This document shows, one piece after another, positions 3,085-56,939 of a DNA stretch of 64,000 bases. This DNA comes from Eledone cirrhosa (lineage: Eukaryota). The stretch is taken from NCBI GenBank assembly GCA_964016885.1, contig OZ024743.1, positions 170,128,001-170,192,000 of the forward strand, written 5' to 3'. Position 1 is the first letter of the stretch. Every line of letters starts with the position of its first letter. Under the pieces are notes generated by a model that did not search any database, had not been told where the DNA came from, and saw only the letters and a program-made list of their open reading frames with translations. The position numbers and the translations under genes are program-made.

Positions 3085-3405
3085 TACGATATTAATAAAT
3101 GGAAACTATATTTATAAAACCATATTTATTTCATTATATATATTTCAAGGATACCAAGTTACATTATGGTATGCCTTCATCAGACAAAATACAATATATA
3201 ACAGTTTTATAAATAGACATTGACGTACCCCTTTAAAAATTGACCGTTGCTTTTGGAGGCCATCAGGATATGAAATAAATATGGTTTTATAAATATAGTT
3301 TCCATTTATTAATATCGTATATCTACTCCAAATATTTGTCGAGTTTTATATCAGTTATAAAAATATTTGCTTGTTGTATCCCAACAATTTAAATAAAACT
3401 TTTGC
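3085..3405. mobile_element. PLE pseudo-LTR-like fold-back unit (family P1) between (TA)n tracts
   Basis: Inverted arms at ~3085-3135 and ~3270-3320. The same sequence family occurs at 16040-16492, 29459-29690 and 33208-33645. Confidence 0.75.
3127..3191 (-). ncRNA. Minimal type I hammerhead ribozyme (family P1)
   Basis: Reverse complement reads TATTTTGT CTGATGA AGGCATACCA-loop-TGGTATCCTT GAAA TATATATA ATGAAATA. Stem I is 8 bp with GU pairs, stem III is palindromic, cleavage triplet is AUA. Confidence 0.8.
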
Positions 3406-3531
3406 ATATATATATATATATATTTATATATATATATATATGCAATATATATATAACGGAGGAAATGTGGTAAGGAACCAGGTGGACCATAACGCACCAA
3501 AGTACTCAATACTTAGGGTAGTAGTGTGGGT

Positions 3532-3651
3532 AATAGGAACGAGTAGGACCCCGACGGCTGAGCTCAAGCCGTTTCGACGGCTAATTCTGTAGTCCAGAAT
3601 TAGCCGTCGAAATGGCTTAAGCTCAGCCGTCGGAGTCCTACTCGTTCCTAT
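3532..3651. repeat. ~120-bp hairpin carrying only the 3' half of a hammerhead on each arm (GAAAYGGC..GCCGTC)
   Basis: ATAGGAACGAGTAGGAC...CTAATTCTG tagtc CAGAATTAG...CCTACTCGTTCCTAT. A related sequence occurs at ~59920-59985. Confidence 0.75.
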
Positions 3652-4187
3652 AAATATATATATATTTATATTTCGGTTATTTGTTGGAGATTTCTTCATA
3701 GAAGCCTTATTCTTATAGCCTGGTCTATTTGATTTTTTATATAGTTAATTATGCTAATTGGGAGAGGAAATGGTATATATTTTATCTGGTGATTCTATAG
3801 ACATGTTTATGATATTTATATATATATATATATATATATATATATATATATATATATATATATATATATATATATATATATAAATGTAAGTATGCATGTA
3901 TACGTACATACATATATGTATACAGACGTACAGTAGCATATATATATGTGCATGCTACTGTACGTCTGTATACATATATGTATGTACGTATACATGCATA
4001 CTTACATTTAAGTAAGTGCCATACTAAGAGTGAGAAATGAAATTTCATTTTCATTTTGTTTCAATTTATCGTTTTCGGTATGCCTGACCGATTTAACTCA
4101 CTCAATATGCAAATTAGGCTGCTCAGCCGTTAATTTTCATAAGGAAAGTATATACTTTCGAACGTTCAACTATCTGGCAGATGGGTA

Positions 4188-4232
4188 AACGGTGCTGATG
4201 ATAGCTAACAAGCTTGAAACTAGTACATCGTT
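4188..4232 (+). ncRNA. Minimal type I hammerhead ribozyme (P2)
   Basis: AACGGTG CTGATGA TAGCT AACA AGCTT GAAAC TA GTA CATCGTT: 7-bp stem I, AGCT/AGCT stem II, palindromic ACTAGT stem III, GUA cleavage triplet. Confidence 0.88.
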
Positions 4233-4653
4233 CCTGTGTCAGTGTTGAACAAAAAGGTGACGTGGTTGCCTTAACACCGTATGGCATAAATTCAGGCTGT
4301 TCAGTTTGTTTACAAACGAACAAAGCGACGTTGGCGCCGCTAAACTGATACGTGCATATATGTATGTGTACCTGTATGCACATGTATGTATATATGTATA
4401 TATATATATATATGTGCATGCTACTGTACGTCTGTATACATATATGTATGTACGTATACATGCATACTTACATTTAAGTAAGTGCCATACTAAGAGTGAG
4501 AAATGAAATTTCATTTTCATTTTGTTTCAATTTATCGTTTTCGGTATGCCTGACCGATTTAACTCACTCAATATGCAAATTAGGCTGCTCAGCCGTTAAT
4601 TTTCATAAGGAAAGTATATACTTTCGAACGTTCAACTATCTGGCAGATGGGTA

Positions 4654-4698
4654 AACGGTGCTGATGATAGCTAACAAGCTTGAAACTAGTACATCGTT
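4654..4698 (+). ncRNA. Minimal type I hammerhead ribozyme (P2), second tandem copy
   Basis: Identical to 4188-4232. Confidence 0.88.
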
Positions 4699-54070: not shown

Positions 54071-54145
54071 ATATATATATATATATATATATATATATAT
54101 ATATATATAGAAGTGGTTTCTTTCACAACAGTTAGTTCACAATAC

Positions 54146-54183
54146 CGAGAACAATTGTTTCACCTTAGCGGATCATCAGCTCA
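54146..54183 (-). ncRNA. Minimal type I hammerhead ribozyme in the inverted pLTR (P10)
   Basis: Reverse complement reads TGAG CTGATGA TCCGCTAAGGT GAAAC AATT GTT CTCG. Confidence 0.82.
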
Positions 54184-54835
54184 TGATGGACATGATTATA
54201 CAGAACAGGAAGGACAACCGTACGAACGCGCATGCGCAGAAACGATCACTTCACACAGGCAATACTAAATTGCGTGCGAGAGGTGTAAGGGAGATAACTG
54301 CGAAAGTCCGAAAGTTTCTAGTTGATAAAAAAATTAGGATGTTGTTGTAATTCAATCTGGAGCTTTGTAGTTATGTAAGAGGTGTTTGTAAGACGTGTGG
54401 ACAACGTGTGAAGAATTCATTTCTCGTGTTTAAGCAATCACTATTGCGTAATCTCTTTAGAATATTTATTCGTTCATCAATACATAGTCCACACGATGGA
54501 TTGCCCCTTGCATATGGCTTGGACATAGTGATGGCTTTCCATTGAATGGAGTAGTCTATATTTGAGTCCTTGAGGGACCATACGTGGCTTGTGAGTTTCG
54601 TGGATGAACGTCTGTCCGTGTATCTAAAGGTCGACTGGTGTTTCTGGAAGCGTTCCTTAAATCGGCCCTCCGCCATACCCACATAGGATTTGACCAACGG
54701 TCAGCAGATTCTTTTCACTACATAGAAGTTTGACTTTTAGCAGATTCTTCACCATATGCGAGCTTGGCTGCCTACCCTGTGAGCGCTCTCTGTATCCTCG
54801 TGTCCTAAACAATTTTCTGTCTCATCAGCATCAGT

Positions 54836-56835
54836 ATGGATTTATACGAACTGGATTACTCCCTGAAGATCATTCCCACTCCCTCCAACCATGTTTACCA
54901 AAAGCTTCTCATAAAAAAGCGGAAGATGTCGTCAGACACTTAAGATGGCGAGCCCTAGCTTTTGACGGCAAAATTACAGGCACCCATAACACCTTCAACC
55001 TGAAATCGAGAGCCTACCCTCCTAAGGTAACTGAACTTGCTCCTTTCGAGGTGGACCTTCTTGACTTAGTCGCTAACATTTCCTTTCGCAAACACCTTAA
55101 CACCTTTCAAACTAAACTTAGAAATGACATTAAGAAATTTAAGTTTTCTAATAACACTTTCGTTCTTTCCAACAAAACTAATAATATTTACAAAGTTGAC
55201 AACACCACTTTCTGCCACCTGGCCCATAACGCTATTACTTCCAAATATAAGAAAGCTAACCCTATGGCCTACCACGACATTAATACAGAAGCCAAAGAAC
55301 TTGCCGCCGCCCTTAAGGTAGATAAGAAGCTACAATCTCTAGCTAAGCGGGAGGCGTTCCTCACCCTGAAAGATCACAAGGTAGAGTTTACTTCTAACCC
55401 CACATGTAGACTAATAAACCCGGCACGCACAGATATGGGACTAGTCAGTAAGGCCATACTTAGAAACATAGTTAAGACCATTAGGACCAAGTCCAACCTG
55501 TCCCAGTGGAAGAACAAAGACTCCGTAATTAAGTGGTTTAAATCCTTCAAATCCAAAAAAGCGAAGTTCACACAGTTTAACATTGTTGATTTTTACCCGT
55601 CGATCTCAGAGACCCTGTTAAACAAAGCATTGGACTTTGCTACCACTTACACTACCGTCGATGGTTTAGACAGGGAAATCATCTCTGACTGCCGGAAAAC
55701 CCTCCTTTTCAACAACGGAGTAGCCTGGGCAAAGAAGTCAACAACTTCAGACCTATTCGACATCTCCATGGGATCGTTTGACAGTGCTGATGTATGCGAC
55801 TTGGTTGGCCTATTTATTTTAGACATATTACATGTTAGATTCCCAGACTTCCACACAGGAATATACCACGACGATGGACTGACCTTAATTGAGCCATAAA
55901 AGTGGTCACGACCTCGACCAGTTTAAAAAAGACTCAGCTTCTACCTTCAATGAGTTAGGACTTAGGATAACAGTAGTTACCAACCTCTCTAGCATAGACC
56001 CTTCCATAAGCTAAACGAAAAACTCAATTACATTCACAAGGACTCATACCACCCTCCCACTGTTTTTAGAAACTTCGTAAATAATATCAGTACTAGAATC
56101 TCAAACCTCTCCTCTAATAAGGCTATCTTTGACAGGGCGGCACCCTACTATAATACAGCGTTAGCTAACAGCAGCTTCTCGCAACCTATCATTTACTCTC
56201 CTACTAACAACAACAGCAATAAGAAAAGAAAGCGTAACAATAGACAAACTATCTGGTTCTCTCCTCCCTTCTCACTCAACGTTAAAACCAATGTAGGCAA
56301 ATTTCTAGCCCTCTTAGATAGACACTTTCCCATAGGTCATAAATACCTCTCCATCTTTAACCGACACAAAGTAAAACTAGGATACTCCTGCGCTAAGAAC
56401 ATGAAGGCCCACATCACCAACAGCCCTAAGAGCAACACCCACCAGGGTGCTCTTGCCGTAAGCCCGAAGCTTGTCCTGTTCAACAGCAATGCAACACACA
56501 CTGTAGTTTATGAAGCTGTGGTCACTTCCAACCGACCAAATCAACCACGGGAGGTCAAATCCTATGTGGGTATGGCGGAGGGCCAATTTAAGGAACCCTT
56601 CCTGAACCACCAGTCGACCTTTAGGTACCCGAACAGACGTTCATCCACGAAACTCGCGAGCCACGTATGGTCCCTCAAGGACTCAAGTATAGACTACTCC
56701 ATTCAATGGAAAACCATCACTAAGTCCCTGCCATACGCAAGGGGAAATCCGTCGTGTGGACTATGTATTGATGAACGAATAGATATTCACCTCTCCCTTA
56801 CACCTCTCACACGCAATTTAGTATTGCCTGTGTGA
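54836..56835 (+). pseudogene. PLE RT-GIY-YIG polyprotein, frameshifted and partly deleted
   Basis: MDLYELDYSLKIIP, HLRWRA, TLKDHK, CRLINPA, FNIVDFYPSI, MGSFDSADVCDLVG, GIYHDDGL, IWFSPPFS, VVY..YVGMAEG.FK and CGLC. Confidence 0.9.
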
Positions 56836-56903
56836 AGTGATCATTTCTGCGCATGCGCATTCATACGGTGGTCCTTCCTGGTCTGTATAACCATGTCCAT
56901 TAC

Positions 56904-56939
56904 GAGCTGAGGATCCGCTAAGGTGAAACAATTGTCCTC
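56904..56939 (+). ncRNA. Minimal type I hammerhead ribozyme in the PLE 3' pLTR (P10)
   Basis: GAG CTGAGGA TCCGCTAAGGT GAAAC AATT GTC CTC, with a GUC triplet. Confidence 0.82.

Follow-up and report, generated by a model that had tools for sequence, protein, structure and literature searches.

A dense patch of hammerhead motifs and Hydra-type Penelope-like elements between TA-rich tracts of the Eledone cirrhosa genome

The stretch of DNA described here, called the window, comprises 64,000 nucleotides (nt) of Eledone cirrhosa (assembly GCA_964016885.1, contig OZ024743.1, positions 170,128,001 to 170,192,000 of the forward strand) and sits on a 379-Mb contig of a 3.0-Gb genome. It is a patchwork of pieces of long and short interspersed elements (LINEs and SINEs) and of short islands between TA-rich tracts. 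Three stretches, belonging to the families called G, H and I below, encode pieces of the protein of Penelope-like elements (PLEs), and hammerhead ribozyme motifs are spread over most of the window.

Hammerhead motifs between the TA-rich tracts

Both strands were scanned with a descriptor of the type I hammerhead (stem I of at least 3 bp, CUGANGA, stem II of at least 2 bp, GAAA, stem III, UH). Between positions 3127 and 56939 this gives 21 motifs with a perfect core, all with CUGANGA, GAAA and UH in the type I order, the first on the minus strand (3127-3191) and the last on the plus strand (56904-56939). Three further whole motifs have a single core change (13372, 15576 and 45134), and two are core variants, with U3-A8 at 42142 and U4C at 25768. 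The 21 perfect motifs belong to eight families, namely A (stem III ACTAGT, five motifs), A3 (ACATGT, one), B (ATAT(G/A)TAT, six), C (ATGATCAT, two), E (ATGCGCAT, two), F (a 16-nt stem III, two), G (ACAATTGT, two) and M2 (ACAATTGT with a long stem II, one). Twelve of them are both members of six paired insertions (five inverted, one tandem), so the 21 motifs represent about 15 insertions. The same descriptor finds nothing in the reversed window, and in 200 shuffles, in which the TA-like tracts were kept fixed and the islands dinucleotide-shuffled, the mean is 0.035 motifs (standard deviation 0.18, maximum 1).

The fold is also backed by compensatory changes. By core spacing alone 47 compact variants were collected, and the 22 chosen from these were analysed together, not family by family for B to G. 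In this pooled set 98.3% of the cells are paired and two-sided changes occur at nine of the 13 pairs, a level reached by none of 500 shuffles, and all three helices are supported. Stem III is an exact palindrome in 16 of the 21 motifs, self-complementary through G-U pairs in three, and a longer hairpin in two. In the minimum-energy folds of 12 monomers, stems I and II are mostly present and stem III is not, and several monomers fold no better than shuffles. For the short stems III the computed hairpin energies are positive and the self-duplex energies negative, a modelled result that fits the published idea of action as dimers (PMC4209133). Dimer cleavage of hammerheads has been described by Lunse et al., as cited in a review (PMC6765202), and it is plausible here; cleavage after H17 is the predicted outcome for these motifs.

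Rfam gives no match anywhere in the window at gathering scores. When 151 bases were searched alone, a weak match to Hammerhead_HH9 appeared (18.5 bits against a gathering score of 52, E-value 0.022), and a local search on family F returned no hammerhead. An E-value search of the whole window was also tried and set aside, as the best 150 of its 486 matches held only microRNA-like matches to TA hairpins. The failure of Rfam has no bearing on the fold; the database holds no model fitted to these variants. Taken together, the hammerhead motifs are confirmed as real.

An earlier sequence-only reading of the window had proposed about 22 hammerheads from about ten families. This was a fair count, and its limits, 3127 to 56939, agree with the first and last matches of the descriptor. 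A contrast with shuffled sequence, in the window, and covariation, in the pooled set, were both found, as were the preserved pairing of differing stems, the mostly palindromic stem III of minimal type I hammerheads of the PLE kind, and their absence from the Rfam calls. Its statement that nearly every island folds into a hammerhead was too strong: of 36 islands in the span that are neither LINE nor SINE, sorted by eye, only 15 have a whole canonical motif, while six have a mutated or variant whole motif, six have half a motif or a tail, and nine have nothing recognisable. Its families, described as unrelated, are not all so: A and A3 can be aligned with each other, and B, D and E have similar stem I sequences.

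Some families carry altered cores. In family K the change U4A is fixed in 100 of 100 among the matches listed, out of 16,326 pattern matches, and this appears to be new. In family M1 the core is one base longer in 100 of 100 among the matches listed, out of 240; it reads CUGAANGA, where the last variable position can be any base. Family H has the known U3-A8 core pair. Perreault et al. report that rare changes of the hammerhead core can be tolerated.

Coding and non-coding families

The PLE protein pieces of the window have 106 homologues of 577-904 amino acids, one of them named as a reverse transcriptase domain. Reverse transcriptase and, at the C-terminus, an endonuclease of GIY-YIG type follow each other in one open reading frame (ORF), which is frameshifted or cut in the window copies. 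When G, H and I of the window were aligned with six homologues, the marks of the Hydra clade were seen: RW(K/R), DKT, a CxC-X5-C linker, and a C-terminal Y(I/V)G endonuclease with CxxC and CxH. In the window copy of family G the motifs are RWR and NKT, and the cysteines of the linker are gone. The other families were assigned by their tblastn likeness, and on this footing B, D, E, F, G, H, I, K and M1 are predicted to be Hydra-type. Insertion in (TA)n, a 3' hammerhead, an inverted 5' copy and a tail, all of them features of that clade, are present as well.

The motifs are linked to this ORF through longer copies. In families B, D, E, F, G, H, K and M1, such copies have a co-oriented Hydra-type ORF 0.2-2.5 kb upstream of the hammerhead, with a long low-complexity 3' untranslated region (UTR) in between. 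For family G the link is seen in the window itself, and in 30 of 38 contexts, from loci fetched with the G protein, the distance is 105-237 nt (mostly 184-212). Family E has the full ORF in four loci (L315, L317, L319 and L320) and part of it in a fifth (L321); of 96 contexts, 19 have an ORF end upstream, at a distance of 970-1160 nt in 14 cases. The link is found in three of five long copies of B (L184-L186), three of six of F (L191-L193), two of five of D (L326, L327) and two of three of M1; L329 also has an ORF between its arms, which was taken for an unrelated insertion and left out of the M1 count. In family K the ORF ends 958, 963 and 980 nt upstream in three loci. Family J shows no consistent ORF distance in 115 contexts. 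The 5' ends differ widely between copies, and because of the long UTR that separates ORF from hammerhead, most truncated copies have no ORF. An ORF-less copy does not imply a non-autonomous family, since longer copies of B, E, F and G run into the PLE ORF. These four families account for 12 of the 21 canonical motifs, the ORF-less A and C for five and two, and A3 and M2, with one motif each, fall outside this direct tally. Judged from their sequence, the 12, and most of the variant motifs, are 3' ends of 5'-truncated coding PLEs. Solo truncated copies are likely to be inert, with no partner in cis.

Family A is different. It is an ORF-less tandem unit of 420-500 nt with 36% GC and one type I hammerhead per unit. 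No consistent ORF link was found in 116 contexts, and the longest ATG frames, of 82-112 codons, are on the opposite strand. Units of 466 bp occur in arrays on seven contigs, and 36 of the best 40 matches are 100% identical. Folded as a circle, the monomer has an energy of -147.8 kcal/mol against -105.4 (standard deviation 4.9) for 40 shuffles, in part through a TA-like hairpin. In other loci the arrays are two-armed, with several units on both arms. In one of them (L175) all 13 units of both arms share a variant base that is absent from 20 units elsewhere, as expected from one circular template; an unseen source array would give the same. With tandem ORF-less units, one hammerhead in each and low GC, family A is a non-LTR (non-long-terminal-repeat) retrozyme at the DNA level (compare PMC7229834), and RNA circles are predicted for it. 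The unit is also present in contigs of four sequencing runs of unknown kind, which are silent on RNA, and a look for runs recorded as RNA listed none that contains it. Two further observations touch on retrozymes. A head-to-tail array of diverged family A units of about 422 bp, at least 30 kb long (L182, L174 and L183; G000:C28:109990001-110020000), looks like a retrozyme turned satellite, and L194, where a tandem repeat of about 590 bp has both an inverted arm and a hammerhead with U3-A8 (stem III ACTACGTAGT), probably represents a further retrozyme family.

In family C the units from hammerhead to hammerhead are 2,362 and 2,826 bp long, and at most two hammerheads stand in tandem. The units have no PLE match and no ATG frame above 86 codons, and in 24 long loci there is no joined co-oriented ORF; three of these contain PLE matches, read as separate insertions. 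Family C behaves like a retrozyme but lacks the short tandem monomer of the non-LTR retrozymes, and is better called a non-autonomous PLE. Both A and C are likely moved by the same PLE protein as the coding families. The sequence-only reading had seen a large non-autonomous population, which stands for these two families, about a third of the motifs, and does not stand for B, E, F and G with their link to the PLE ORF.

Genome-wide, 59 evenly spaced 10-kb pieces (590 kb) hold 40 motifs, 15 of them from one array. The density is thus 0.043-0.068 motifs per kb against 0.33 in the window, which is 5-8 times richer; the proposed rate of one ribozyme per 3 kb is correct for the window, and is local. 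TA tracts make up 9.4% of the window, and a mean of 5.2% (median 2.2%) of the sample. Roughly extrapolated from this small sample, the genome would hold about 130,000-200,000 hammerheads. Matches to U3-A8 in one locus (L141) turned out to be a minisatellite of 20-30 bp and were dropped as false, and variant cores were therefore excluded from this estimate. Exact patterns match 23,750 places for A, 23,033 for B, 21,234 for E, 16,326 for K, 7,564 for G and 4,962 for C, those of B, C, E and G spanning only the 3' half of the motif, so that cut copies are included; reversed control patterns match nowhere. Among the loci examined outside the window there are at least a dozen more hammerhead families; stem III is palindromic in most of them, and in some the stem II region spans 45-95 nt.

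Ends, arms and tails of the insertions

The insertions meet their TA tracts in a regular way. Of 25 sampled motifs outside arrays, 20 are followed by (TA)5 no more than 260 nt downstream, where the background is 22%. Each family has two fixed junctions with (TA)n, one 15-55 nt and the other 85-200 nt past the predicted cleavage site, and in families B to G, M, J and K these two 3' ends, short and long, are 65-145 nt apart. Inverted pairs nearly always combine the two. Of 107 classified pairs, 102 are long and short, five are long and long, and none is short and short, where 53 long-and-short pairs would be expected if the arms were independent; four more pairs were unclassified. In family E alone, with loci taken from pattern positions, the combination is seen in 33 of 35 pairs. 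Either arm can carry the long tail, and the two are often far from equal. The rule holds for family A too, with long and short in all eight pairs classified by script, of 21, and in 12 of 12 by eye among 16 loci, a set that overlaps the former. The two arms of an insertion are also nearly identical, with a median of one difference in 105 sites, against 7 (family E, 34 pairs) and 13 (family B, 17 pairs) between insertions. One case in the window (36931-39216) goes against the rule: around an insertion of family F, an inverted duplication of the flank (36931-37227 and 38920-39216, 99.7% identical) is found together with two long ends.

The tail itself contains a hairpin that opens with ACU and closes with RAGU, then RCY. 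In B, C, D, F, G, J and M its start lies 7-12 nt beyond the short end, in the first subfamily of A it coincides with that end, and E also has the hairpin. Against a background of 1.2%, it is found in 31 of 39 copies of B, 45 of 48 of C, 13 of 21 of D, 41 of 45 of E, 15 of 20 of F, 14 of 21 of G, 36 of 40 of J, 7 of 15 of M and 29 of 131 of A. The hairpin is a candidate protein-binding site. The long-and-short rule, its observance by family A, and a tail hairpin common to A and the coding families appear to be new; no prior report of the rule or the hairpin was found in the literature searched, the scope of which did not include subscription papers, Repbase entries and supplements.

The features of the window are collected in Table 1. 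Several islands are without a hammerhead: N (36931, a SINE end), O (48115), P (3660, 26016, 51903), T (24454), Q (27936) and R (23470). Those of P, T and O stand in TA tracts (3660-3816, 24454-24650, 26016-26115, 51903-52190 and 48115-48409) with no hammerhead recognised, and may be hammerhead-less PLE ends or carriers of another motif; family O has inverted arms in other loci. At 49223-50856 there is a large palindrome without a hammerhead, formed by two LINE/SINE 3' ends that are 100% identical and lie inverted about TA-like tracts, and at 2628-2925 a tandem repeat of about 70-77 bp adjoins the 5' end of an RTE-type LINE.

Table 1. Hammerhead-bearing and related features of the window, by position
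Feature	Position	Strand	Evidence
Family B hammerhead, stem III ATATATAT, 3' end of coding PLE family	3127-3191	-	Descriptor; ORF link L184-L186
Family J short palindrome: only 3' half of hammerhead (inversion point inside stem II) and tail	3445-3651	.	
Family A retrozyme insertion with short inverted head and about 2.3 units of 466 bp in tandem; stops at long site in (TA)n	3884-4998	+	
Family A hammerhead (ACTAGT), unit 1	4188-4232	+	Descriptor, Rfam local search
Family A hammerhead (ACTAGT), unit 2	4654-4698	+	Descriptor
Family C two-armed insertion of ORF-less 2.3-2.8 kb element; long tail on - arm, short end on + arm	5190-5722	.	
Family C hammerhead (ATGATCAT)	5386-5443	-	Descriptor
Family C hammerhead (ATGATCAT)	5608-5665	+	Descriptor
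Family M1 two-armed insertion, both arms lacking 5' strand of stem I; core plus one base (CUGAAAGA); family has PLE ORF link	11202-13300	.	
Family D hammerhead, core change G5C	13372-13434	-	Descriptor; ORF link L326, L327
Family A (second subfamily) hammerhead	13800-13842	-	Descriptor
Family D hammerhead, core change A14C	15576-15638	-	Descriptor
Family B hammerhead, short arm of two-armed insertion 16044-16495	16084-16149	-	
Family B hammerhead, long arm of insertion 16044-16495	16295-16360	+	
Family M2 hammerhead, 61-nt stem II region, 77% like M1	24211-24300	+	
Family A hammerhead; 5'-cut second copy at about 25010 (+)	24902-24944	-	
Family K palindrome, centre removes 5' strand of stem I; family core CAGAAGA (U4A)	25381-25603	.	
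Family L palindrome: whole U4C-core motif on - from 25768, half motif on +	25610-25877	.	
Family B hammerhead	29583-29648	+	Descriptor
Family B hammerhead, long arm of two-armed insertion 33205-33642	33335-33400	-	
Family B hammerhead, short arm of insertion 33205-33642	33538-33603	+	
Family E hammerhead (ATGCGCAT), about 550 bp of pyrimidine-rich 3' UTR upstream	35255-35325	-	Descriptor; family ORF link
Family E two-armed insertion, truncated within hammerhead	36413-36684	.	
Family F hammerhead (16-nt stem III)	37999-38049	-	Descriptor; ORF link L191-L193
Family F hammerhead	38634-38684	+	Descriptor
Family H 5'-truncated Hydra-type PLE; endonuclease part 42505-43395; U3-A8 hammerhead with 2-bp stem I from 42142	41892-43859	-	
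Family A copy split by TA tract, hammerhead broken	43922-44388	-	
Family E hammerhead, core change G8A, long arm	45134-45205	-	
Family E hammerhead, short arm	45312-45382	+	
Family A hammerhead	51594-51636	+	Descriptor
Family A3 hammerhead (ACATGT), distant relative of A	52611-52651	-	
Family I Hydra-type PLE 3' end: endonuclease C-terminus 53023-53328, 3' UTR, degenerate hammerhead-like stretch at 53899	52795-54067	+	
Family G near full-length frameshifted Hydra-type PLE; inverted 5' arm from 54110; reverse transcriptase and endonuclease 54916-56745	54110-57037	+	
Family G hammerhead (ACAATTGT), inverted short arm	54146-54183	-	
Family G hammerhead, long arm, about 200 bp past ORF	56904-56939	+	

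Mechanism, alternatives and known relatives

The best explanation, with a probability of about 0.85, is that the motifs are the 3' ends of many Hydra-type PLE families inserted in (TA)n and mostly 5'-truncated, joined by the ORF-less families A and C, which are likely moved by the same protein. It is carried by what is seen in the DNA, namely the ORF links, the TA junctions, the two fixed 3' ends, the long-and-short rule, the near-identical arms and the tail hairpin shared across families. The insertions could have arisen as follows. The element protein would bind the tail hairpin just downstream of the hammerhead and nick both strands of a TA tract, and reverse transcription would be primed from each nicked strand at one of the two internal start sites, on one template (or on the RNAs of one source copy). 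Both complementary DNAs (cDNAs) would usually stop early, often at a hairpin, and would then be joined head to head, the product being a palindrome with one hammerhead on each strand. In family A the hammerheads of tandem units, acting as dimers by way of the palindromic stem III, would cleave to yield a circular or multimeric RNA; this would serve as the template, and arrays of identical units would result from copying round it. Further insertion into the TA tracts that flank earlier insertions would build up dense patches such as the window.

As an example of such chemistry, Frangieh et al. (2024, PMC11167929) have shown that the protein of Poseidon, a PLE of Anolis carolinensis, cuts and extends both strands of AT-rich DNA in vitro, that two internal start sites define the tail, and that hammerhead cleavage is not required. 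AT-rich targets and a hammerhead upstream of the tail are shared with the elements described here; Poseidon belongs to another clade, was studied in vitro, and comes with no count of one long and one short end. By analogy, the pattern in Eledone is what Poseidon-like chemistry would leave if each cut strand took one start site and the products were joined.

Several points weigh against the Hydra-type PLE explanation or limit it. The Hydra assignment is based on motifs and not on a tree; four window proteins and three homologues had no match in Pfam, and a sequence search of the PDB gave none either. Any present autonomy of a single family is putative, a master copy of family C with an ORF could have been missed, and cleavage and expression are predictions. 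From the 22 covariation rows most of the single-copy mutants and a false hit were left out, and the scores are inflated by relatedness between rows. As to the ends, the queries used to fetch the loci of B and C favour one of them and only E is free of this bias, and 13 of the 21 pairs of family A could not be classified by script. The identity of the arms is uninformative in family C (median 1 against 1), and in general it is compatible with twin priming, fold-back copying and later gene conversion alike. The tail hairpin is absent in K (0 of 11), was not found in H, L, A3 and five of six further low-copy families, and is departed from by the second subfamily of A; its motif was chosen by eye from the same families in which it was counted, so that the counts are not an independent test.

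A more ambitious version joins all of this, and is put forward tentatively, at somewhat less than even odds. Here the retrozymes and the long non-coding element would hijack the Hydra PLE protein through the shared tail hairpin, every insertion being twin-primed from both cut strands at two fixed sites, with a circular RNA as template in the case of the retrozyme. The coding families would tolerate fixed core changes, so that cleavage would matter for making circles and not for integration.

Among the alternatives, the one that survives best, though it is less likely than not, concerns only the second arm: one cDNA from the long site would loop back onto itself and be copied up to the short site, and priming on RNA would happen only once. 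In its favour, the arms are nearly identical, and many centres of inversion coincide with natural hairpins, at recurrent places (families C and J). It sits poorly with arms that are so often unequal and of which either can be the long-tailed one, with arrays of family A that have several units on both arms, and with the extension of both strands by a related protein in vitro (PMC11167929). Distinctly less probable is that the arrays of family A are an ordinary satellite, expanded by unequal crossing-over from single truncated PLE ends with no RNA circle. This route is discussed by Li et al. (2026, 10.64898/2026.07.22.740005), and the diverged array on C28, of more than 30 kb, would suit it; short arrays on different chromosomes are 100% identical, two-armed and bounded by TA at two fixed ends, and no coding parent of family A was found in its 116 contexts. 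There is still less to be said for nearly all families being short non-autonomous elements with defined ends of their own, a diverse population of retrozymes. Most copies are indeed ORF-less, and A and C are never found with a consistent ORF, so that the idea holds for these two; for 12 of the 21 motifs it is refuted, as long copies of B, D, E, F, G, H, K and M1 reach a Hydra-type ORF at distances specific to each family and their 5' ends vary widely. Fold-back chimeras arise in amplified libraries, and palindromes that are mere artefacts of assembly or amplification are nevertheless hardly credible when they are family-specific, end at two fixed TA sites and have arms with scattered mutations, and the hammerheads are present regardless.

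Elements of this kind have been published before (PMC4209133, PMC8557442, PMC7229834), and what the window adds are unusually clear traces of insertion. Craig et al. (2021, PMC8557442) describe the Hydra clade as inserting in (TA)n and having canonical hammerheads, and the single ORF with reverse transcriptase and C-terminal endonuclease, RWK, DKT, CxC-X5-C, 5' truncation, an inverted 5' copy and a tail at one end are common to their elements and ours. In contrast, tails are 65-145 nt here and 30-40 there, several families here have 3' UTRs of 1-2.5 kb, and a small number of families there compares with 96,869 places matched by six patterns here. Cervera and de la Pena (2014, PMC4209133) proposed truncated PLEs as the source of single hammerheads and of pairs on opposite strands. 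The type I fold, the palindrome in stem III, the base left unpaired at the foot of stem II and the U3-A8 variant of their pseudo-LTR hammerheads are found again, as are the many families per genome and the prevalence of single motifs or opposite-strand pairs 100-700 bp apart. The stem III regions here are 6-16 nt and not minimal, the numbers are far higher than the 2,000-9,000 quoted there, and the variants given in the part of that paper seen include no family-wide U4A or extra-base core.

Animal retrozymes were described in 2020 (PMC7229834), and their origin from PLEs is the subject of the preprint of Li et al. (2026). Family A agrees with these elements in its ORF-less tandem units with one type I hammerhead each, its GC content of 36%, the U-U pair at the foot of stem II (as in axolotl HHR_Amex2), the self-paired monomer and the presence of PLEs in the genome. 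It differs in its units of 420-500 nt, and in arrays that are two-armed, with two fixed ends of the PLE type in (TA)n. Linear and circular RNA belong to the definition of the class, and for family A both are predictions. The link to PLE integration is direct for family A, and consists of co-occurrence and sequence likeness in the two earlier studies. Family C, with 2.3-2.8 kb, exceeds the range of 51-972 bp given by Li et al. As to scale, about 120,000 hammerhead motifs have been reported for axolotl (PMC7229834), in a genome of 28 Gb (Li et al.), and one octopus repeat annotation lists Penelope-like families with ribozymes unmentioned in the main text, as far as that was seen.

What goes beyond the routine is therefore the density, the quantified rule of the ends, and the structural link between retrozyme and PLE integration. 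By extrapolation, something like 100,000-200,000 hammerhead motifs not called by Rfam can be present in a 3-Gb genome. The origin of inverted, tailed PLE insertions, the role of the hammerhead, and the enzyme that moves animal retrozymes are all open in the field (PMC8557442, PMC11167929, PMC7229834). This genome offers young and numerous families, mapped ends, a candidate binding hairpin, an ORF-less passenger and core variants, with which all three questions could be tested using one purified protein.

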